Program-made: the position numbers and the translations under genes
IMG/VR virus record: IMGVR_UViG_3300023109_001684
Strand: one strand, 5' to 3'
DNA length: 64,000 nt
Source: a virus
Part shown: piece after piece, positions 16,059 to 61,186 of the stretch
Layout of the letters: each line of letters opens with the position of its first letter
Position numbering within the stretch: the stretch's first letter is position 1
Notes under the pieces: model-generated
The model's input: the letters and a program-made list of their open reading frames with translations, nothing else
Told to the model about the DNA's origin: nothing
Database searches by the model: none

Positions 16059-17142
16059 TTGTTAAGGCTTCCTCGATTTGGTCTTCCGTAGCTTCATCAT
16101 CTACGCTGTCGATATTTACCACTTGAGCTTCTTTAATCAAGTAATCTGACATAACCTTATCGAGGTTCTCGCCTACCCACTTTTTACGGTATTCGAGAAT
16201 TTCTTCGCCGTCACTAGAAACATACTTTAGTCTATTACCTTGTTTCTCAATGACTCCTTTACCTTCAAATAATTCAAGCAATCCACTATAAGGATTCATA
16301 CCTGTTTCATATGGAATCTTTACTTGTACACCTTCAAACGGTTTTGCATAACGAGTCTTCATAACCTTACAGCCTGCACGGATACCCATAACTTGACTGA
16401 TCTTGTTACCATCTTCGTCTTCTTTCAGCTTCATCTTTTTCATTGCAACAACAATACTTGATGCATAGATAAAGCCTGAACCGCCACTAATCTTATCATC
16501 TGGGTCAAACATATCTTGCGATGCATATGTGTGATTAGTACATACTAGTCCAACATTCAATGAACCAATCATATTAACTGTGTTACGAACAAGTGATGTT
16601 AACTGCTTGGGCTTACGACCCATATCACCTTTCATATCACCTTTGTTAAACTGATCGATGTCAGTAGGTGTTAGCAACATACCCAAACTATCAACTACAA
16701 ACAATACTTTAGGCCGGTCTTCTTCATCCATTGTTTTATAGTCTGCAATAAATGTTGACAGTGTTTTAGCAACATCATCAATCATTGACATATTAAGTTT
16801 AAGTAGTTTATCGTCTGATGTGTCTACATCTAATGCTTGTAACCAAGCTTCGTCAAGTGCGTTCTCTGAGTCAATTAGTACTACAAAGATACCTTGATCT
16901 TGTGCTGCCTTTACAATGTTACCTGAACAGATATATGATTTACCTGCACCTGATTCACCAGCAAACACAGTTACCTTACCAAGCGGAACACCTTTGTGAA
17001 AGTCACCACTAATAAGATAGTTTAGTGCATAGTTGCCTGTGCTGATCCAATCTTTAGGATCATTGAATCCACTACTCATGCCTGAGATGGATTTTGTTAA
17101 GTCCTTACGGAACTTAGTCGGATCGAATGATTTATTCGCCAT
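16051..17142 (-). CDS. uvsX: UvsX/RecA-like recombinase
   Basis: STGNYALN, AGESGAGKS (Walker A), DSENA, VVDSLG, TNHTY and ISGG motifs. Confidence 0.95.
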   Translation of the reverse strand: MANKSFDPTKFRKDLTKSISGMSSGFNDPKDWISTGNYALNYLISGDFHKGVPLGKVTVFAGESGAGKSYICSGNIVKAAQDQGIFVVLIDSENALDEAWLQALDVDTSDDKLLKLNMSMIDDVAKTLSTFIADYKTMDEEDRPKVLFVVDSLGMLLTPTDIDQFNKGDMKGDMGRKPKQLTSLVRNTVNMIGSLNVGLVCTNHTYASQDMFDPDDKISGGSGFIYASSIVVAMKKMKLKEDEDGNKISQVMGIRAGCKVMKTRYAKPFEGVQVKIPYETGMNPYSGLLELFEGKGVIEKQGNRLKYVSSDGEEILEYRKKWVGENLDKVMSDYLIKEAQVVNIDSVDDEATEDQIEEALTNE

Positions 17143-41983: not shown

Positions 41984-42551
41984 TTTTAAACCTTATGTCA
42001 AATGCAATATTAATTCTAGATTTATTAGATAAATTCGGTTCAACTTCGTGCGGTAACCAACTAGGCCACATAATTAAATCTTTGTCCTTAGGTGAAAAGA
42101 AAAAGTCTCTAGTAAATGGACTTTTTGTATTACACTCACCTAATGTATTTGCAGGATTCATAATACGGAGATCACCTGTACCTGATCCTTGTATATAATA
42201 CACTCCGGATAATATTCCAGGCTTGTGTGCATGCATAACATTTCTCGAACCGATATTATTTACGTTTGCCCAGTAATGAATGTCAAACTGTTGATTAGAA
42301 TACATTGCAAAAGTATTATCAATATCTGAATAATATTTAAATTGTTCTTTTACTGATGTTTCTATTGCCTCTAATAAAAATTTAATATTATGTAATTGTT
42401 GAGTACCCCGCCAGCAACCGTCGTTACTAAACGAACTATTAGGAAACTTTGTACTGTTTTCTAATATTTCTTGTTTTAATAAATCTAAATTACTATCTGA
42501 ACCAACTTCATTATAATTAAAAAGTCCAGCATGTAGGATTGTTGGGATCAT
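41973..42551 (-). CDS. 2OG-Fe(II) oxygenase (TIGR02466-like)
   Basis: WAN, HAH, LSGVYY, WPSWLPHEV.PN and RINIAF motifs. Confidence 0.88.
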   Translation of the reverse strand: MIPTILHAGLFNYNEVGSDSNLDLLKQEILENSTKFPNSSFSNDGCWRGTQQLHNIKFLLEAIETSVKEQFKYYSDIDNTFAMYSNQQFDIHYWANVNNIGSRNVMHAHKPGILSGVYYIQGSGTGDLRIMNPANTLGECNTKSPFTRDFFFSPKDKDLIMWPSWLPHEVEPNLSNKSRINIAFDIRFKNEN

Positions 42552-44059
42552 CTATCATACCAATCAGTTAAGTACTCGTATTGATTTTTAAACATGTTTT
42601 CAACTAAATCTAATCTTGCATTAGTGCAATCAATAAAATACTTTCCGTATCGTTCTTGAGATTCTGTTAAGTACGGCTCTACGTCTTTATATGCGCCGCC
42701 TGCGTGTAATACACTAAACCATTGAGTAATATTAAACATACTACTTGGTGTTAAATTCATAAAGCGTTGAGGATAAGGCAAAAATGCTGATAATATATCT
42801 TTAATAAACTTTGGCATTTCTTCTAATTTTTGCTCACGTATTTCTTTCCAGTACGGTGTATCATTACGTGAACTAAAGTAATAGTGCGCCCAAACAAATG
42901 CTAGAATTTCTTCTGACATTTCACTAAAGCCTCTATTAATAAATCCTTTTGTTTCAGTATTCCAAATATTTCCAGTATTATTCAATAAATCAACAATGCT
43001 CATAACTGCACCTGTTGTAAACGTAATGCCTGTTGCTTCTAACGGTTCAACAAATCCTGCACTTAGTCCAACTGCAATTACATTTTTTACTGCAATTTCT
43101 TTGTGATACCCGCATTTCATTTTTAAATGATTTGCAGGAGCTACGTATTCTCCAATTGACTCACGCAACTCTGCTTCAGCGTCTTCTTTAGATATATGCT
43201 TACTAGAATATACATACCCATTTCCTACTCTTGTAAAAATAGGAATAGTAAAGCGCCAACCTGCTTTCATTGTAGTTGCTTTTGTATACGGAAAACATTC
43301 TTCTTCTGGATTTTTATATTGTTTAGGTATAACTACTGCACTATCATTTAGCAGTATGTCGTTATAACTATGGAAGGGAATATTAAGTTCTTTTTCAAGT
43401 AATCTACTTTGAAATCCTGTACAATCAATATATAAGTCTGCAGAATACTTATTTCCATTAGAGTCTATTAATGCTGTTATACCGTTTTGATCTTTTTGTA
43501 TATTGTCTATTTTAGCATCAATATGTTGTATTGTGTCGCCTAATATTTCTTTAAGAGTTTTAATTATATTATGAGCATTAAAATGTACTGCACCAAAGTG
43601 TAATGGCCCCATACGATGATTTACATCTAAGTAGTCATCAAATTTTTGACATATGTTTTGTTTTGCAAGACGGTATGCAGGATGATAGTCTTTAAATTCT
43701 TTATTTGTTTTACCTATAAAGTAATCAGAGATATAATAATCTTCTGCAATTAATGTATTATCAGGAGAGTCGTTATCTACAAAGTACGGCTCATCATTCC
43801 ATCCCTCAAGCTCAACACCATACTTAAAACTAGCATCACTTGTATTCATCCATTGCTTTGGTGGTATACCGCATTTACCTAAAAAGTGTGCGGTGGCAGG
43901 TTGTGTTCCTTCACCAACTCCGATTGGCCCTGCACTGACATCTTCTATTAATGTTATTTTAGTGGGACGTTGTAAATTTCTAGACATATATGCAGCAGTT
44001 AGCCAGCCGCTTGTTCCGCCGCCAAAGATTATTATGTGTTGTACTTTATTTAAAAACAT
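42548..44059 (-). CDS. flavin-dependent (tryptophan-type) halogenase
   Basis: GGGTSG, IGVGEGT, catalytic-Lys region FKYG, DCTGF, GWRFTIP, GNGYVYS and FVEPLEATG motifs. Confidence 0.92.
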   Translation of the reverse strand: MFLNKVQHIIIFGGGTSGWLTAAYMSRNLQRPTKITLIEDVSAGPIGVGEGTQPATAHFLGKCGIPPKQWMNTSDASFKYGVELEGWNDEPYFVDNDSPDNTLIAEDYYISDYFIGKTNKEFKDYHPAYRLAKQNICQKFDDYLDVNHRMGPLHFGAVHFNAHNIIKTLKEILGDTIQHIDAKIDNIQKDQNGITALIDSNGNKYSADLYIDCTGFQSRLLEKELNIPFHSYNDILLNDSAVVIPKQYKNPEEECFPYTKATTMKAGWRFTIPIFTRVGNGYVYSSKHISKEDAEAELRESIGEYVAPANHLKMKCGYHKEIAVKNVIAVGLSAGFVEPLEATGITFTTGAVMSIVDLLNNTGNIWNTETKGFINRGFSEMSEEILAFVWAHYYFSSRNDTPYWKEIREQKLEEMPKFIKDILSAFLPYPQRFMNLTPSSMFNITQWFSVLHAGGAYKDVEPYLTESQERYGKYFIDCTNARLDLVENMFKNQYEYLTDWYDR

Positions 44060-52462: not shown

Positions 52463-55400
52463 TTATCTCAACATATAGTTCAATGCTAAAGGTATACCTG
52501 TTACAGATTTTGTAAAGTTTACGTTTGCATTGATATTTATTAGTTCTCCACTCACAGTGGTTATTTGGTTGGTATTTATGAATATGTCACCAGCTGTAAC
52601 ACTGTTAACATTAAGTGACGCACCACCGCCACCAATTTGTGCTTCGATATATGCTTTAACTGCTCGCTGTGTTGGTACAACACTATCGCTATTTGCAGTA
52701 AAGAATGGATCTGTACTAAATTCAGTAATTGAAGCTGAGTTACCGCCTAGTGTAACTGTTCCTAGTGATAGTTCTTGTAGACCAGCAATATTAAATGCTT
52801 CAGCATCAAGTGTAGCAACACCTGTTGCCTGTTCAATACTAAACAAGTCGCCAACTCTAAAGTTACCATCTTGGTCAGTTGCTGTGAAGAATACTCGTCC
52901 ACCTGCACTATCAGTAGTTTCTTTATTTTGATCTGGCAAGTTAACCGGCGGACCATTTACTTCATTTGGATAGTTTGAATCAGCAAAGTTACCTGTTCCG
53001 ATATCTAAGAAGTCATGTCCTGTTAATCGTACCTGACTAAATCTAATTCTTAGTTCTAATTCAGTACCTTCAGCTGGTGCTTCGTCAATTTCTAATGTTG
53101 GCGAAACTTGTAAGAATCCAGTAAAGCTACCTTCGTTAGTTCCTCTAAAGCTAACAGTATTAACAAGTTTAAATACTCTTCCAGGCAAACTTGTAAATTC
53201 AATATTAGAACCTGCTACTGGTCTTGAACTTAGTCTCTTAACAGCTACAAATGCTCCTGATTGGAAGAAGTCTGCAGATCCATTAGATGCATTTTCATTT
53301 ACATCTGATGTTGCTGTAATAAATCCTGTTCCTCTATTTGCAAAAGTAGGATTAGCAAGTAGTCCAGTTCCTACACGTACTTGTATGTTTACATCTTCAG
53401 TATTGTTAGGATCAGTTACAGTAATTGTTGGAGTACTTGTATAGTTTGAGCCTGGCTCTTCTAGTCTAATAGCAAATACTTGCTCATTTGAAGTACTTGC
53501 ACGACCTCTTGCTTGAACTCCTAATCTAACATTCATTACATCAGCAGTAATGCCAGAACCTATTGCTACAAATTTTGGTGTCTTATCTGGGTTACCAAAT
53601 GCAATTGCACCGCCTGCACTAAAGTTAAAGCCTGCGCCGCCTTCAGTTGCCCATGTTAGCCCATATTCAGAATATGTTAGTTCATTAGAGTTACTAGTAA
53701 CAGCAAACATTCCTTGTCCGTAAGCAATTTTACTATATGTACCAGTTGGTAAATCTTGTTGTGTCCAAGATACACCGTCTAAACTGTATGCTGCTGTTCC
53801 GTCTGTAGCAATAGCAATAAATCTACCATTACCCCACGATATGTCTATCCACGGTGCGCTTGGCAATCCGGTACCTGCACTCCAAACTAATCCGTCCGCA
53901 GAGTACATTGTATCTGTTGTACCGCTTCTAAGAGCTACAAATTTTCCTGCTCCATTTGCTAGTGCAGAATAGTTTGTACCAGTAAGAACTGTGCCTGTAG
54001 TTGACCAAGTAACGCCGCCGTTGTCACTATACACAACGTCAGTATCATTACCACTAATTGCAATAAATCTACCAAGGCTTTCTGCAACTTGTCCAAATGC
54101 AACCATTGATGCACCTGCTGTTGCAAATGTACCTGGTAACGTAACACTAGTCCATGCTACACCATCTAAACTATATGCAGCAGGGCCGCCTTCGGATATT
54201 GCTATAGCAACACTTTGTTTAAATGTTGACGATCCGTCATCTATTAGTCCACTTGTAATATTATCCCAAGAGTTACTTGCTCCAGCATCTGGTAATGAAT
54301 TTGAAACCCACGTAACACCGTCAACACTATATGCGCCGCCGATATTAGCATCTGGTATCGCAACAAATACTCCTTTTTGTCCGTAGCCGCTAAAGTCAAA
54401 GTCTACAACAGCTCCGTTTACATCAACAGTAGTAATTGTAATTACTAGATCATTTAATGGAGTTGCACCACCTAATGACGTACCTGGTATTTCACAATGA
54501 TTTAGTCTTCCGTAGCCTGCACCACCTTGGTTAAGAGTTACATAGTACTTTTCACCATTACGTGTTACATCAAATGTTGCTCCAAGACCATCAGATTCTG
54601 TTAATGTTACTACATTAGTATATTGCGCCGATGTAGTAACATATGTTGCATCAGTATAAGTATTTGAAGTTATAGTTGCTTGTGTTGCAGTATTTGTCGG
54701 AGCACTAAATGCTACTGCTGGTTCAATTTGATATGTTGTTGTAGCATTTGGAGCAACAATAGGTGTTCCAGGAACAACATGATTCCATTCAGTAACTGTT
54801 ACTTCTTTAGTACCAGCATCGTATGTTTGAATAATAGCATACTGTCCATTACCTGCACCACCTACAAGCTGTATTCTAGTTCCAGGGTATGCTGAACTTA
54901 AATTACCATCTGTTGCTGATATAAATATTCCTGTTAAGCTTCCTGACTGTGCAACGTTTGACACTGTTGTATAACCAGCACCACCTGTTGTAACACCTTC
55001 AGTTTCACTAGGAATGATTCTACCTTCAAATACGCCTAAGTCTCTAAATTCGTCTGTAATTACAACTTCGTTTGAACCGCCGCCGAATATTTCAAGTTCA
55101 GCTTCAGTATAATCATTACCTGCATGTGTAAATTCTATGTTAAGTATTTGGTTAGCATCTGTGTTAACTAATCCTACAGTAGCGTTATACTGTGTAAGAT
55201 TGTCAACAACAGCTGATGTTGCAGTTTCTTCTGGATCAACACCTTCTGCTACAGAACCAAATTTACCGTATGAATTGTTACCGTTTGTAGCACGTACTCT
55301 ACCGCCGGACTCTGCCAAGTATCCCATGTGTGAGTAGTATGTAAACACTGACACAAGTTCTGCTCTACCGTTGTTAAGAATGTGTGCGCCAATACCGTCA

Positions 55401-58400
55401 CTTATGACTTGTGTAAAGTCGTTACTAACAATTGAATCATTACCGCCGTTATGCAATGCACCGTCAATTCTTTGACCAGTTGCACCAAATCCGAATGTTG
55501 TACAGTTTTGTACATACGGTGAACGTGCAGTAATCCATACACGTTTATCATCTGGACCCCAACCTGGATCAAGTGATGCATATGCTCCTGCTGTTGGTCT
55601 ACGTGTTCCGTATATATTACTTGCACCTAGATCACCATTTAGACCTTGCATAGTTTGTAGTCTTAATCCTGTACCATTACGTAAGTAATAGAAATCTTCT
55701 TCTTGCGATCCTATCATTGCATTTACATAATATCTTGCTGCAAGTCTTGTTTTATAAGCAGCAGGACGATAAACTACAACATCGTTAGTGTAAGTTCTCT
55801 TCCATTCCTGGCCCCATACTAGATCCCATTTCATAGCATTAATATATTCTTTAATATCTCTAGCACAAATAGCTCTATTATATGTATATGCTGTTTTTAC
55901 AATAAACTGGTTATTTGTTCCGTCTACTTGTACATACACGCCGCCTACTGTATTTGAAACAGCAAACTCAGTAGCACTAAAGACATCAGCAACATAAAAC
56001 TTATTATTTAGGAAGAAGTTAGTATTTGTTAAAATATTATTTGGATTTTCAAATGCTATTTCCATTCCAACTTTTAGCCAACCTGTATCTGCAACAGTAA
56101 GTGTATACAGATCTACTCCGCCTGATGCACCACCAATTGTTACAGTAGTATCAGTTACAGTTGACCTAAAGTAATCATTGACATATGCTATTGCTTCGTC
56201 TACAATAAATTCTTTATTCACCTCTAGTTGTCTAACAGCATTATAAACTTCAATATCGTCTGTTTGTCTATTACCACCTTCATTTGATCCTGCCCAGATT
56301 GTATCTTGTACTAGATCCCATGTTTCATTAATTCCAGTAATAGCTGTAGCTTCAGAAATTTCTGCAACAGCTAGTCCTAGCGCAAATTGATTTGCTGCTA
56401 TTGTTGCTGTTTTTTGCGGACCTGTTACTTTATTACTAGTTCTACGTAAGTAAGACAAGCCTGCATTAACACTTGCATAGTTTGTTCCTAGCATCCAATC
56501 ATATCTAGCAGCATCAATTATAAGTCCTAAATCTCTAGAACACTTAGCATGATCGTATTTAAAGTCATTGTATGTATTTGTAATAAACTGAATTACATTT
56601 AATATTACGTCTGATCTACTATTGTCAATAGTTGTTTTAGCAGTTGTAAATTCAGCATCTGCCCATGTTACACTTGGATATGACACTGCGCCTAATACTG
56701 CCGACAATGTTGTAGTACCGTCAATTACATCACTAACTGTTTCTACAAGTGCTTGAACTGCACTTCCTTCAGTTGCACTTGCTGGTGTTCCTAGTGTAGT
56801 TTGTAGTGTAGTATTTCCAGTTTGTGCAGTTACAGAAGTCTCTTGTACGATATCTGACATAATGCTTGCTAAGTGATTGTAAGCTGCTGCTGTTTCTGTA
56901 GTTTGACCATCTACTTGTATTGTTCCGTTTACAAAATAAGATTCACAAATTCTACTAGTAGCTTGGTTACCGCCATATAAGATATCATAACTTGCTGCGT
57001 TAACAATGTATTCTACATCTCTTGCACACTTAGTACTATCATAAACTAAAGAACCATAGTTTTGTGCAATATACGCAATAACATCATCTTTCATAAAAGC
57101 AATGTTTGCTTGTAAGTTATCTTTTGCATCTACTTTATTTTGGTCAACGCCTGTTGGGCTTGGTAATACTAATGCATTAACTGTGCCGTCTCCTGGCATT
57201 GCTGTACCTAACGACCCGTTTTGGATAATATCAACTATTTCGTTATATGCAGTATTAAGTCTAGTTAAGTCATTGCCAGAACCAAGTAAAACTCTATACT
57301 GATCTCTAGCATTTCTAATAGCACCTACAGTTTCAACTCTTTGGTTTTGTAGATTGTATGCATTATTTGGGCGCTGATAAGCAATACCGTTAAATGTAGC
57401 GTTATAGTTTGTACCAAGCGCAATATCATATGCTGTATCAGTAATAATGTTTGTTAAGTCTCTGCGGCACTTTGCACTATTATATTTAAAGCTACCAAAG
57501 TTTGCATTTATAAAGTCAATTGTTTTTTCTTGTATAACTGGTAACGCTGCAACTAAGTTTGTGCTATCTGATTGTAATCCAACTGAAGCACCTGCAACAC
57601 TTGGATATGTTATCGATGCAGCTGAGATACCGTTAGTGACCGCAGGTATAACTGTATTATTAAACAATGCTGCAATAGCGTTTGATACTGTTGCATTACC
57701 TGGCTTACCACTAATTTGTGTTACGCCTGTTTGATATGTTGGAGTAACTGTAATATCACGTCCTACTGTTTGTAATAAATCACGCAAGTATCCGTAAGAT
57801 GCAATAGTAGCAAGCTTTTGCGGAGTGTCAATACTTACATCGTCAATATCAACAATACCTGCTGCATCAGTTTCAAAAATAATTTCTGTTTGCAATGCAG
57901 TAGCAGTAAACGTATACGAAACACTGCTTGTAGATGTAAGATCTATTGCAGTAGCTAATGCTGTGTCTGAATTTGGATTTCTTGCAAATACACTTGCTCC
58001 GTCAGCAGTATGAGTAACTGAAACGTTTACTGTATATTCTTGACCTGGCGTAGTATAAACAGTTTGCAATGCAGTACCTGCAGTTCCACCGGCAGCAACA
58101 AGTTCGTTACCTGTTATTGCAAATGCACCATTTGTAATAGTCCAATCAGTTGTAGTTGCAAAATCGCCGTTAGTTATTAAACCAGTTATTTTATTAACAT
58201 TTCCACTACCGTCATAGTATGATTTAGTAGCATTATATGTCTGCCAGTTGCCGCCATAAACTAGATCGTATGCAACTGCATCTATTATAAATCCAACATC
58301 TTGTTTACATTTTGTTTTACCATATTCAAGATTTGGATATTGATCTGCAATATATGCAATAATTTCTTCTTGTATAAACTCTTTGTTAGAAGCATTTAGT

Positions 58401-61186
58401 TCTATTGCATAACCGTACTCTGGTACACCTAACTCATGTGGCTTAGGTAAAATAGCATTTTCTTTAATACCTGTTCCAATTGCAACTCTGTCAGCAATAT
58501 TTCTTGCTAGGCGCTTTGTTTCAGTAGCTACAGGAGTAGTTTCTGCGTAAGGCCACGTAACATCTTGTGTTGTTGTATTGCCTGTAGTTGGAGTAACTGC
58601 TGAACCTATTACAACATCTCCTACAATTGCTTCAATTCTTTTAATTGCTTGGTAACTGTAGCTGATGTCTTTTTTGTCTGTTAATGTACTATTAATAGTT
58701 GTTCTTGGCTGTACATTAGTAGAACGAAGTTCGTCTCCTATAATACAGCATTCTGCTGGAACAACAATTGGAAGTACTTCGTAGTACTTTCCGGTTGACA
58801 CTTTAATTAATGTATTTCTAATTAATCTTTCAGGTATATTAGTAGCAACACCTGCTGTTATTGCATCTGTAATAATCTTTGCTAGACCTTGAATGTCTGC
58901 ATAAACACTTTCTGTTCTTAGTAATTCATTAGTAAACTGTACTGATACTCTAGTACTATTATCGCCATTTGTTGTTTGATAGTTAACTGCTGGCGCTGTT
59001 TGATCTAATATATTTTCAATTAAAGTAATGCCGTAATTTATAGAAGCATTAGTTTCAGCTTTTTGTGTTAAGTATGGTGATCCTACTGTATCATTTACAT
59101 AAGATAATGCTGCTTCTCTAGAACGTACATTACCGCCGTGTGTAATATCCCAAATTAGAGCATCAACGATTAGACCCATATCTCTTTCACATTTTTCTGT
59201 CTTGTAATCAAATGCTGTAGTAAATGGTGCAAGGTTATTTGTTATTTGGTACTGTGTCCATTCAACAATTTCTCTTTGTATAAATCTTCTGTTAAGTTCT
59301 AATAACTGTGCTGCATCTGGATTTCTAGCACCTTGCTCAACTTGCTGTGCTGCATACTTAATTGTTTTATAAGGTTTATCAATTGTTGTACCATAAATTG
59401 GAGCAGGTAAATCTAAACCGTGTTCTGCAACATAATAAACATCAGCAGTAGAACCAATAAATGCCCATTCCGGAATACCAGTTGAACTTACTGTTAATAC
59501 TTGTCCGTCTCTACCTACTGGTAGTCTAGTTGGTGCTGAACCACTATAATAAACTAGGTCGCCTTTGGTTGTAAGTACACTAGACTCTGAACCAATTGCT
59601 AATGCACTCCAAAACTGTCCGCTATCTGCTAAGTCTGGGCGTGATCCTTCAGCACCTGAGCTTAGTGAACTATAATCGTCGCCTTCTGAAATATGTCCTA
59701 ATATACATACATATGAATTGTCGCCATAACGTACAACATCACCTTCGTAATACTGTGCATCATCTCTCCACTCACCTCTCCACTCAAAACCGTAGTTTAA
59801 TCTTGTCCAATAAACTTCGTTAGGTGGTATTTGGTTTTGGTGATCTGCAATACAACGATATGTATAGCCGCCGTGTCTTACAACGTTACCTACTTGATAT
59901 TCGTATTGTGACGAATCTGCTCCCCAGTCGCCGATGAATTTAAATCCTTCAGTAAATAGGTCCCAGCTTGCTGGAACAACAGTTGGTCGATCATTTTCGT
60001 TATCTGTTTTACTAATATACTGGTTACCACCGTAGCGTACAATGTCGCCTGGTTGGTAAACACCATTATATGCCCATTCATTTTCAAATTGGAAGCCTTC
60101 TACAAACTTTTCCCAGTTTGCACTATCGTCTGTAAATGCAGCAGCACTTGTATGATAGCTAGTTGCAATCCATAAGCTCGCACCGTACTTTACAACATCA
60201 TTAACAAGATATTTTCTACTTGTAAGCCATTCATTTTGATAGCGGATACTTTGATTAAATGCGTCCCACTTTATTAAGTCATTTTCTAAACCTAAGCCTG
60301 TGCCAATTCCTGTAGACTGGTGCGGATCGATACAAACAAAACTTGCACTACCGTACTTAACAAAATCACTTAAACGGTAATGGAAATCTTCGTGCCATTC
60401 GCCCTTCCAATCTAATCCATCAGCAAATACATTCCAATTGGCTAAATCTGTTTCTAAACCTAAGCTAATAATTTCTGCACTTGCATTGCTGCTCATGCCA
60501 GCATGTTGATAGCAGAAATAATGAAGTGTGTCTGGAGCGTCATCTGGAACAGTAATACGCATTTCTCTAGTAGTAGCAGCAGCAAATCCTGCATCGTATG
60601 CTGCGGCATCAACTACTTCGACAGCATCTAGGAAATATGTTACACCGTCAGTATATATTGCTCCGCTGTTGTGTGTTCCGTCTTTAGTAGTACTAATAAC
60701 CATTGGATGTCTAGCAACGCCGGCACCAGCGAATAAGTTAGTAGCACTATTTTGCTGCCATATATATGTGTTGCCTCTTACCATTTGAATGTCTGGAGCC
60801 GCAACGCCGTCTATATAAAATACGCCGTTACTTACATTAGGGTCGTCTGCTACTGTGATTACATATGTTTCGGAGTCGGACTGTGTGGTAGAAGTATGAA
60901 TGGCATCACAAATATATAACCTTGCACCGTACTTTACAATATCATTGTACACATATGATGTGCCGTTGGACCAGTCACCCTTCCAAGTTTGACCATCACT
61001 AACTAAATTCCACTTTGTCGGAACTACATCTAAATCTGTAAAAAAGTTAGCATCACTGCTATGTCCTTCTACACATATATACGCTTTCCCACCAAAAGCA
61101 ATTACGTCATCCTTGTAGTAAACAGTGCCTGTGGTCCAGTCACCTTTCCATACAAAGCGTATTCTACCTAACTTAAATTCTGCCAT
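52463..61186 (-). CDS. giant multidomain virion protein (2907 aa)
   Basis: N-terminal W.G.W...Y...D.V.YG..Y repeats, cupredoxin insert, six helical C-x-R/Q-D repeats, beta-helix-like region, S.DG..W (BNR-like) propeller, conserved GHDFLDIGTG / TDQDGNFR tail. Late promoter and SD upstream. Confidence 0.85.
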   Translation of the reverse strand: MAEFKLGRIRFVWKGDWTTGTVYYKDDVIAFGGKAYICVEGHSSDANFFTDLDVVPTKWNLVSDGQTWKGDWSNGTSYVYNDIVKYGARLYICDAIHTSTTQSDSETYVITVADDPNVSNGVFYIDGVAAPDIQMVRGNTYIWQQNSATNLFAGAGVARHPMVISTTKDGTHNSGAIYTDGVTYFLDAVEVVDAAAYDAGFAAATTREMRITVPDDAPDTLHYFCYQHAGMSSNASAEIISLGLETDLANWNVFADGLDWKGEWHEDFHYRLSDFVKYGSASFVCIDPHQSTGIGTGLGLENDLIKWDAFNQSIRYQNEWLTSRKYLVNDVVKYGASLWIATSYHTSAAAFTDDSANWEKFVEGFQFENEWAYNGVYQPGDIVRYGGNQYISKTDNENDRPTVVPASWDLFTEGFKFIGDWGADSSQYEYQVGNVVRHGGYTYRCIADHQNQIPPNEVYWTRLNYGFEWRGEWRDDAQYYEGDVVRYGDNSYVCILGHISEGDDYSSLSSGAEGSRPDLADSGQFWSALAIGSESSVLTTKGDLVYYSGSAPTRLPVGRDGQVLTVSSTGIPEWAFIGSTADVYYVAEHGLDLPAPIYGTTIDKPYKTIKYAAQQVEQGARNPDAAQLLELNRRFIQREIVEWTQYQITNNLAPFTTAFDYKTEKCERDMGLIVDALIWDITHGGNVRSREAALSYVNDTVGSPYLTQKAETNASINYGITLIENILDQTAPAVNYQTTNGDNSTRVSVQFTNELLRTESVYADIQGLAKIITDAITAGVATNIPERLIRNTLIKVSTGKYYEVLPIVVPAECCIIGDELRSTNVQPRTTINSTLTDKKDISYSYQAIKRIEAIVGDVVIGSAVTPTTGNTTTQDVTWPYAETTPVATETKRLARNIADRVAIGTGIKENAILPKPHELGVPEYGYAIELNASNKEFIQEEIIAYIADQYPNLEYGKTKCKQDVGFIIDAVAYDLVYGGNWQTYNATKSYYDGSGNVNKITGLITNGDFATTTDWTITNGAFAITGNELVAAGGTAGTALQTVYTTPGQEYTVNVSVTHTADGASVFARNPNSDTALATAIDLTSTSSVSYTFTATALQTEIIFETDAAGIVDIDDVSIDTPQKLATIASYGYLRDLLQTVGRDITVTPTYQTGVTQISGKPGNATVSNAIAALFNNTVIPAVTNGISAASITYPSVAGASVGLQSDSTNLVAALPVIQEKTIDFINANFGSFKYNSAKCRRDLTNIITDTAYDIALGTNYNATFNGIAYQRPNNAYNLQNQRVETVGAIRNARDQYRVLLGSGNDLTRLNTAYNEIVDIIQNGSLGTAMPGDGTVNALVLPSPTGVDQNKVDAKDNLQANIAFMKDDVIAYIAQNYGSLVYDSTKCARDVEYIVNAASYDILYGGNQATSRICESYFVNGTIQVDGQTTETAAAYNHLASIMSDIVQETSVTAQTGNTTLQTTLGTPASATEGSAVQALVETVSDVIDGTTTLSAVLGAVSYPSVTWADAEFTTAKTTIDNSRSDVILNVIQFITNTYNDFKYDHAKCSRDLGLIIDAARYDWMLGTNYASVNAGLSYLRRTSNKVTGPQKTATIAANQFALGLAVAEISEATAITGINETWDLVQDTIWAGSNEGGNRQTDDIEVYNAVRQLEVNKEFIVDEAIAYVNDYFRSTVTDTTVTIGGASGGVDLYTLTVADTGWLKVGMEIAFENPNNILTNTNFFLNNKFYVADVFSATEFAVSNTVGGVYVQVDGTNNQFIVKTAYTYNRAICARDIKEYINAMKWDLVWGQEWKRTYTNDVVVYRPAAYKTRLAARYYVNAMIGSQEEDFYYLRNGTGLRLQTMQGLNGDLGASNIYGTRRPTAGAYASLDPGWGPDDKRVWITARSPYVQNCTTFGFGATGQRIDGALHNGGNDSIVSNDFTQVISDGIGAHILNNGRAELVSVFTYYSHMGYLAESGGRVRATNGNNSYGKFGSVAEGVDPEETATSAVVDNLTQYNATVGLVNTDANQILNIEFTHAGNDYTEAELEIFGGGSNEVVITDEFRDLGVFEGRIIPSETEGVTTGGAGYTTVSNVAQSGSLTGIFISATDGNLSSAYPGTRIQLVGGAGNGQYAIIQTYDAGTKEVTVTEWNHVVPGTPIVAPNATTTYQIEPAVAFSAPTNTATQATITSNTYTDATYVTTSAQYTNVVTLTESDGLGATFDVTRNGEKYYVTLNQGGAGYGRLNHCEIPGTSLGGATPLNDLVITITTVDVNGAVVDFDFSGYGQKGVFVAIPDANIGGAYSVDGVTWVSNSLPDAGASNSWDNITSGLIDDGSSTFKQSVAIAISEGGPAAYSLDGVAWTSVTLPGTFATAGASMVAFGQVAESLGRFIAISGNDTDVVYSDNGGVTWSTTGTVLTGTNYSALANGAGKFVALRSGTTDTMYSADGLVWSAGTGLPSAPWIDISWGNGRFIAIATDGTAAYSLDGVSWTQQDLPTGTYSKIAYGQGMFAVTSNSNELTYSEYGLTWATEGGAGFNFSAGGAIAFGNPDKTPKFVAIGSGITADVMNVRLGVQARGRASTSNEQVFAIRLEEPGSNYTSTPTITVTDPNNTEDVNIQVRVGTGLLANPTFANRGTGFITATSDVNENASNGSADFFQSGAFVAVKRLSSRPVAGSNIEFTSLPGRVFKLVNTVSFRGTNEGSFTGFLQVSPTLEIDEAPAEGTELELRIRFSQVRLTGHDFLDIGTGNFADSNYPNEVNGPPVNLPDQNKETTDSAGGRVFFTATDQDGNFRVGDLFSIEQATGVATLDAEAFNIAGLQELSLGTVTLGGNSASITEFSTDPFFTANSDSVVPTQRAVKAYIEAQIGGGGASLNVNSVTAGDIFINTNQITTVSGELININANVNFTKSVTGIPLALNYMLR
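55700..59320 (-). repeat. six phycobiliprotein-like helical repeats within the giant protein
   Basis: KCERD, KCKQD, KCRRD, KCARD, KCSRD and ICARD at Cys codons 59191, 58309, 57469, 57028, 56542 and 55867. Confidence 0.75.
59640..61170 (-). repeat. about seven CBM5/12-like aromatic repeats
   Basis: WKGDW...YYKDDVI.FGG.AYIC, WKGDW...Y.YNDIVKYG..LYIC, WRGEW...YYEGDVVRYG..SYVC and similar. Confidence 0.7.

Follow-up and report, generated by a model that had tools for sequence, protein, structure and literature searches.

Autocatalytic attachment of bilin is known from ApcE and smURFP, and ApcE uses a different Cys position for its bilin. A group of phycobiliprotein (PBP) paralogues from non-photosynthetic bacteria, the BBAGs (Rockwell et al. 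2023), occurs in genomes encoding a haem oxygenase (HO) and a ferredoxin-dependent bilin reductase (FDBR) (PMC10151467). PBPs and BBAG-1/-3 attach bilin at a CXRD motif, and these BBAGs bind it covalently without lyases (PMC10151467). Active HO and PcyA/PcyX are also carried by aquatic phages of presumed heterotrophs for a purpose left unexplained, and BBAG-like proteins were mentioned merely as a possibility in this connection (PMC11480375). Among cyanophages, the putative T-type lyase CpeT is restricted to myocyanophages (PMC10452541). The subject of this work is the giant open reading frame (ORF) P0001 in the 64,000-nt stretch of virus record IMGVR_UViG_3300023109_001684 (the whole stretch is called the window below). 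It encodes a predicted tail-fibre-like virion protein of 2907 aa, in which a sequence-only reading had recognised six phycobiliprotein-like domains with a bilin-attachment-type Cys, making it a candidate phage biliprotein.

A regular-expression scan for Y-x3-x-C-x-(R/Q)-D gave exactly six occurrences in P0001, with the Cys at residues 666, 960, 1240, 1387, 1549 and 1774, and both the scan and the codons agreed exactly with the residues given in that reading. The motifs checked by codon in units R1 to R6 are CERD, CKQD, CRRD, CARD, CSRD and CARD, i.e. CxRD is present in five of the six units and R2 alone has CKQD. These six Cys are among only nine found between residues 600 and 1850. The borders of the units were set with a profile built solely from copies in other proteins, the P0001 rows being left out (non-self profile). 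The array, which makes up the middle third of the protein, comprises five complete helical domains of ~125 aa, one of them (R2) interrupted, and one degenerate unit, which is far beyond chance.

An insert divides the profile match of domain R2 in two: hmm 20-90 scored E 6e-29 and hmm 91-133 scored E 3e-4. The count of six repeats had to be modified: five complete PBP-like domains stand, and the sixth is degenerate. R6 was found as two weak pieces (residues 1645-1680 and 1758-1809, E 3e-4 and 7e-4), and its AlphaFold2 (AF2) model, based on 21 orthologues, comprises the first helix, a ~90-aa beta-rich insert and then the Cys1774 helix. The insert was modelled at pLDDT 83-93, the Cys helix at ~70 and the remainder below 50, and the C-terminal half of the unit is unrecognisable. 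Since R6 is represented by weak pieces and a low-confidence end, the array does not consist of six equal repeats. The beta-rich insert of R6 (~residues 1674-1765) differs from that of R2 (residues 998-1118), and the presence of separate inserts inside R2 and R6 suggests that the globin domains serve as hosts for nested domains.

Four independent routes, comprising profile searches, the Pfam family PF00502, HHalign and predicted structures compared with Foldseek/VIA-align, show the P0001 repeats to be homologues of PBPs with their bilin-binding type of globin fold, and the likeness proposed from the sequence was upheld by them, in Pfam at the level of the domain family. With phmmer, the repeat region gave a single match in the PDB, phycocyanin alpha 5ook_A, aligned to R4 with an E-value of 0.11. 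The profile of the six repeats was much more informative: searched against 177,635 PDB sequences it gave 36 matches, 34 of them to PBPs (best E 0.0012), and paired the C/R/D residues with Cys84/Arg86/Asp87. The same picture was obtained with a profile of 101 copies, the match then reaching back through the preceding helix. PF00502 (Phycobilisome) was matched by 16 of 101 diverse copies (best E 1.1e-6), every other family being matched by at most one copy, and precomputed PF00502 matches were already present on many homologues. For R4 it was the sole Pfam match (E 0.0033, 17.8 bits), under the cut-off of 22.2 bits. Alignment of the domain family with PBPs from cyanobacterial genomes by HHalign gave a probability of 94% and E 1.3e-7 over 96 columns, beginning at ~residue 35 of CpcA. 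In both the profile and the HHalign alignments the Cys and the Arg/Asp pair correspond to the bilin-attachment Cys84 and to Arg86/Asp87, in keeping with the earlier proposal. The predicted chromophore site Lys-Cys-x-Arg-Asp on the equivalent of helix E is preserved.

The domain R5 was folded by AF2 with a pLDDT of 90.7. All matches listed by Foldseek for this model, down to rank 48, were PBPs or PBP-derived proteins, and VIA-align superposed 120-136 of 140 residues with Z 15-16 and, in the best rows, an rmsd of 1.9-3 Å. The top matches were 8imi_0, 7ext_03, 4xxi and 7uqa (ApcE bilin domain / smURFP group). A scan of 48,161 chains independent of Foldseek placed PBPs first (Z 12-15), followed by photocobilin (Z 11.9), sensor globins (Z 9.5-11.7) and haemoglobins (~8), the same order as in the tree published for bilin-binding globins (PMC10151467). 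The X-Y helical hairpin, responsible for alpha/beta pairing and ring assembly, is absent before the first helix in both the R5 model and the HHalign alignment, so that the domains are not classical antenna subunits and resemble rather the ApcE bilin domain, smURFP and the BBAGs.

The distribution of the domain was studied with the repeat profile in a word-indexed search. It gave 268 proteins, the best 120 of which were analysed together with P0001; in this set of 121 proteins there are 608 copies of the domain, with one conserved Cys in each. Although columns of the diverse set average only 22% identity, the Cys is retained in 93% of the copies, the Arg in 94%, the Asp in 98% and the preceding Lys in 54%; Tyr five residues before the Cys is found in 86%. 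The family also has near-invariant residues of its own with no counterparts in PBPs: Asp62 (99%), Tyr78 (96%), Asn68 (89%) and Asp57 (81%), columns 57, 62, 68 and 78 corresponding to D1558, D1563, N1569 and Y1579 in R5. These columns may form a cation site, mediate contact between domains or provide an additional contact to a bilin. In domain-bearing genomes the copy number ranges from 3 to 18.

The phage itself was placed by its tail sheath, which is 46-50% identical (tblastn) to those of the jumbo phages PA5oct, Atu_ph07 and Phosso and 51-53% identical to those of two uncultured IMG/VR genomes, G004 (364 kb) and G002 (328 kb). CheckV estimates for fragments of relatives imply genomes of ~350 kb. 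Judged by these comparisons, it is an uncultured aquatic jumbo myovirus and not a typical cyanophage. An affiliation with T4-like cyanomyoviruses, suggested by PHROG matches such as that to tryptophan halogenase, was ruled out by the tail-sheath search. The ORF concerned (503 aa, window positions 42548-44059, minus strand) matches the PHROG 'tryptophan halogenase' family with E 8e-103, a family common in marine phages.

A degenerate DNA pattern for the motif picked up at least 120 IMG/VR contigs, three of them near-complete jumbo genomes, G002, G003 and G004, whose giant ORFs hold 18, 14 and 12 domain copies, respectively. In all three an HO gene lies adjacent to an FDBR gene; in G002 the pair is located at ~164 kb and the domain ORF at 315-325 kb, ~150 kb apart. 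No psbA was found in these three genomes, and a CpeS-type or S/U-type lyase (PF09367) was not found in five jumbo genomes examined, these three included. CpeT is present in G003 only among the near-complete jumbo genomes, in one of 30 domain-bearing contigs and in none of 11 FDBR-bearing contigs. The HO-FDBR pair of G002 (L127, G002:C1:162639-166202) is flanked by genes for Hsp20, a ClpS adaptor and homologues of the curli-secretion proteins CsgF/CsgG; these unusual host-like neighbours hint at a Gram-negative, non-cyanobacterial host.

In a reverse test, contigs were chosen solely for the presence of a related FDBR, with an alignment of four FDBRs as the query (a single FDBR query from G002 retrieved 3 loci only). 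All contigs of 200 kb or more carried the domain (7/7), as did 5/8 of 100-200 kb and 1/11 of 60-100 kb. Such a rise with contig size is expected if the whole lineage has both the FDBR and the domain. The cultured sheath-related jumbo phages PA5oct, Atu_ph07, Phosso, SCTP-2 and GAP32 showed no domain, no FDBR and no CpeT. The closest sheath relatives of the phage (59-83% identity) carry 13-15 domains on fragments centred on the structural module.

T4-like cyanomyoviruses carry the same PBP-like domain in their giant proteins of the 'short tail fibre / gp7' type. Among 18 isolates the domain and CpeT were found together in 13, the domain alone in two (S-ShM2 and P-SSM7, both with unscored candidates), CpeT alone in none and neither in three (P-SSM2, S-SM2 and S-SSM7). 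CpeT was accordingly present in 13/15 domain-bearing and 0/3 domain-less isolates (one-sided Fisher p = 0.012, uncorrected for phylogeny). The two genes are also close on the genome: in S-PM2, Syn1 and S-RSM4 the order is cpeT, small ORFs or tRNAs, the giant domain gene and gp12, with cpeT ending 0.7-1.5 kb upstream of the domain gene, and the arrangement in S-CAM1 is similar, at a distance within the same range (four genera). A search of relatives for bilin genes had been proposed along with the original reading, and co-occurrence was indeed observed, of HO and FDBR with the domain in the jumbo phages and of cpeT with it in the cyanomyoviruses.

Directly before the giant gene and after cpeT, S-PM2 (L441) and Syn1 (L440) have a 2OG-Fe(II) oxygenase gene (T4-LIKE GC 104), and in S-RSM4 an HNH endonuclease gene directly precedes the giant gene. 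The oxygenase may be a further partner, e.g. in modification of the protein or the bilin. A second Cys, 60-108 residues past the first, was found in 14/16 copies of S-PM2, Syn1 and S-RSM4 and in 0/5 of P0001. A tie between this Cys and CpeT was considered and rejected: it holds in the three cyanomyoviruses and fails in G003, where CpeT is present and 0/13 copies have the second Cys. FDBR was likewise rejected as the partner of the domain in cyanomyoviruses, no association being seen.

Two observations concern the cyanophage records. Short forms of CpeT (134-160 aa) are present in many cyanomyoviruses; in P-SSM4 (NC_006884.2), a CpeT-like ORF of 148 aa above the Pfam cut-off was noted at 16642-17064, and a 2010 review lists cpeT as absent from this phage (PMC2984593). 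About 16 tRNA features, all tagged S-PM2t009, lie inside the giant 'short tail fiber' coding sequence of S-PM2 (NC_006820.1, 165928-177267), which seems to reflect faulty coordinates or annotation in the RefSeq record rather than biology.

Adsorption of S-PM2 was reportedly described as light-dependent by Jia et al. in 2010. In darkness, adsorption fails in P-HM1 and P-HM2 and takes place in P-SSM2 and P-SSP7 (PMC6628666). The domain is present in P-HM1 and P-HM2 and was not found in P-SSM2 and P-SSP7, in agreement with these phenotypes, in a small comparison of three domain-bearing phages, the third being S-PM2, with two.

P0001 itself matches the PHROG tail-fibre families phrog_9851 (E 7e-171), phrog_5342 and phrog_4527, and its gene lies within a run of structural genes with tail-fibre, baseplate and sheath neighbours on the same strand. 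By family match and gene context it is predicted to be a virion protein, of the tail fibre or associated with the baseplate; the names of its cyanophage homologues ('structural protein', 'tail protein') are database annotations only. The gap to the upstream tail-fibre gene is 33 nt (Table 1). Past the domain array, a phrog_3442 match was obtained at residues 1887-2091 and Asp-box-like 'YS.DG..W' repeats were noted in the translation at residues ~2330-2600. A Pfam search with the C-terminal ~1060 residues gave zero families above cut-off, and this part is presumed to be the receptor-binding one. With the non-self profile, zero further domain copies were found in the other ORFs of the window. 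Megablast of the P0001 gene against 50,697 phage records gave zero matches, tblastn with one repeat gave 3 records only, being too insensitive for mapping the distribution, and ESM Atlas searches, whether on features or on shape, were uninformative.

Table 1. Features of the window, with positions counted from its first nucleotide
Feature	Residues	Position	Strand	Basis
Tail sheath, 1092 aa		29094..32372	minus	phrog_10581, E 1e-230
Upstream neighbour, tail-fibre protein, 843 aa		61220..63751	minus	phrog_9851 C-terminal part, E 1.7e-46
Giant ORF P0001, predicted tail-fibre-like virion protein, 2907 aa		52463..61186	minus	ORF list, translation
N-terminal region, six CBM_5_12-type repeats	1-600	59387..61186	minus	Pfam PF02839, E 6e-31, six stretches
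PBP-like domain R1	616-738	58973..59341	minus	non-self profile, E 1.5e-27
R1 Cys codon, CERD	666	59189-59191	minus	codon checked
PBP-like domain R2	927-997 + 1119-1158	57713..58408	minus	two profile pieces (see text)
R2 Cys codon, CKQD	960	58307-58309	minus	codon checked
R2 insert, ~120 aa, beta-sandwich-like	998-1118	57833-58195	minus	weak DUF642, PF04862, E 0.0013, below cut-off
PBP-like domain R3	1189-1324	57215..57622	minus	non-self profile, E 2e-30
R3 Cys codon, CRRD	1240	57467-57469	minus	codon checked
PBP-like domain R4	1337-1463	56798..57178	minus	non-self profile, E 2.5e-40
R4 Cys codon, CARD	1387	57026-57028	minus	codon checked
PBP-like domain R5, copy used for folding	1500-1630	56297..56689	minus	non-self profile, E 4e-39
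R5 Cys codon, CSRD	1549	56540-56542	minus	codon checked
Degenerate unit R6	1645-1809	55760..56254	minus	two weak profile pieces and AF2 fold
R6 Cys codon, CARD	1774	55865-55867	minus	codon checked
C-terminal ~1060 residues, beta-rich, fibre-type C-terminus		52466..55639	minus	from translation

Comparative genomics strongly suggests a role of the domains as bilin acceptors. We give an even chance to the reading in which they accept bilins made by the phage or by its host and the fibre is pigmented. Each domain would take up a linear tetrapyrrole during assembly in the infected cell, in the jumbo lineage one made by the phage's own HO and FDBR. The Cys would bind the bilin as a thioether, with the Arg and Asp holding its propionate and pyrrole nitrogens, and attachment would probably be autocatalytic, as in BBAG-1/-3 and ApcE, because most relatives show no lyase gene. 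The outcome would be a pigmented fibre. The most speculative step is that the pigment would make the fibre light-responsive, e.g. by light-gated adsorption, or photoprotective. It is unlikely that the fibre is a virion biliprotein photoreceptor, altered by light absorption of the bilin in such a way that adsorption takes place only in light; if it were, light-dependent adsorption of some cyanomyoviruses, the orphan CpeT and the HO-FDBR cassettes in aquatic phages of non-phototrophs would all be explained.

Several observations weigh against a bilin-acceptor role. A shared fold and motif alone are no proof of ligand binding, the repeats of P0001 itself stay under the Pfam cut-off (17.8 vs 22.2 bits), and the near-invariant residues peculiar to the family hint at a partly different function. 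The sequence-only reading had seen no bilin synthesis genes in the window, and the search agreed: HO, FDBR and CpeT are all missing from its 64,000 nt. The 14 closest sheath relatives show no FDBR either, all of them being fragments 10-53% complete. Co-occurrence within one phage clade can reflect shared descent, and the three domain-less cyanophages may be one clade. In the cyanomyoviruses P-SSM2 and S-SSM7 have an FDBR without the domain, and G003 has CpeT and yet 13 domains without the second Cys.

The principal rival is a pigment-free structural use of the fold, which we regard as possible rather than probable. The PBP-type globin would have been acquired and multiplied as a rigid helical spacer, and the Cys, Arg and Asp would help the domain to fold, link chains of a trimeric fibre, bind a metal ion or form a disulphide there. 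Metal ions are bound on the three-fold axis of known phage fibres such as T4 gp12 and gp37. Near-invariance of Asp62, Tyr78 and Asn68, which PBPs do not have, the tolerance of the domains to large insertions (R2 and R6) and a copy number varying from 3 to 18 per genome, as for spacers, all speak for such a scaffold. However, conservation of the bilin-contact K-C-x-R-D at 93-98% (Lys 54%) in a family with so little overall column identity is hard to explain on this view, and a lone unpaired Cys per domain is usually selected against in an extracellular protein. The scaffold would also leave unexplained the link to HO/FDBR, the link to cpeT and the synteny of cpeT with the domain gene.

It is improbable that the domains act inside the cell as a sink, soaking up free bilins or competing for host lyases so that the host antenna is remodelled or shut down, or bilins are detoxified, with any pigment of the virion as a by-product. 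Cyanophages do carry the phycobilisome-manipulating genes nblA, cpeT and pebS (PMC10452541, PMC2984593), and the domain co-occurs with cpeT. The jumbo lineage, however, is without psbA and probably without a phycobilisome-bearing host, a presumably late structural protein of 2907 aa is a costly sink, and domains placed, as here, between carbohydrate-binding module repeats and a beta-rich C-terminus fit the usual build of virion proteins.

Quite improbable, too, is another ligand in the globin-like cleft, a host-surface molecule, haem or other tetrapyrrole, or a lipid, used for receptor recognition. Haem-binding sensor globins are the next-best structural matches (Z 9.5-11.7) and P0001 is a fibre with carbohydrate-binding modules, but no position of the proximal-His type is found among the most conserved columns, the nearest relatives by sequence and structure bind bilin and not haem, and the co-occurring genes make bilins, i.e. 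destroy haem. It is very improbable that an unrelated helical repeat merely has a short motif that resembles PBPs by chance. Single-sequence and small-profile E-values are indeed only 0.1 to 0.001 and helical bundles may reach high structural Z-scores by chance, but HHalign reaches E 1e-7 over 96 columns, 16 independent copies match PF00502 with no other family recurring, Z 15-16 spans 120-136/140 residues and the structural ranking mirrors the published family tree (PMC10151467).

Literature searches turned up no earlier account of phage fibres with PBP-like domains. Should the domains carry bilin, the virion would be the first phage particle to bear a pigment. The fibre would then provide an acceptor for the orphan phage lyase CpeT, of which we know no substrate, and a testable molecular basis for light-dependent adsorption. 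Aquatic phages carry genes for bilin synthesis to which no purpose was assigned (PMC11480375), and for these, too, the fibre would provide an acceptor. The family of bilin-binding globins (PBPs, BBAGs and photoglobins) is extended into predicted viral structural proteins, which bears on the open question of phycobiliprotein origin (PMC10151467). Being small, monomeric and possibly self-attaching, the domains are also a potential source of fluorescent tags.

The phage domains share with PBPs (nearest in sequence is C-phycocyanin alpha, in structure allophycocyanin and phycoerythrin beta) the globin-like helical fold, at Z 15-16, the K-C-x-R-D motif aligned to Lys83/Cys84/Arg86/Asp87 and the G-x6-Y-x4-GG spacing that follows it. 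They differ from PBPs in having no X-Y hairpin, in being tandem copies within a 2907-aa fibre protein instead of subunits of ~160 aa, in their own conserved Asp57, Asp62, Asn68 and Tyr78, and in bilin binding, which is predicted only; moreover, P0001 is phage-encoded, and psbA was not found in its near-complete jumbo relatives. The ApcE bilin domain and smURFP are also PBP-type domains working without a partner subunit, that of ApcE being embedded, like those of P0001, in a long multidomain protein, and the insert of R6, which follows the first helix and precedes the Cys helix, occupies the position of the ApcE loop. ApcE, however, is a component of the cyanobacterial phycobilisome and not a virion protein. 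With the BBAGs, compared here by their description, the phage domains share the CXRD motif, and in the near-complete jumbo relatives they occur, like BBAGs, outside photosynthesis in genomes with HO and FDBR, but BBAGs are small, stand-alone proteins whose genes cluster with FDBR, whereas the phage domains are repeats in a structural protein. Further counterparts are the giant fibre proteins of cyanomyoviruses (T4-LIKE GC 734 of S-PM2, Syn1 and S-RSM4; gp7 of P-HM2). These belong to another phage family with cyanobacterial hosts, are linked to cpeT and not to HO-FDBR, and mostly have the second Cys that is absent from P0001, yet they carry the same domain in 3-11 copies per genome and are annotated, in line with the assignment of P0001, as tail-fibre or baseplate proteins.

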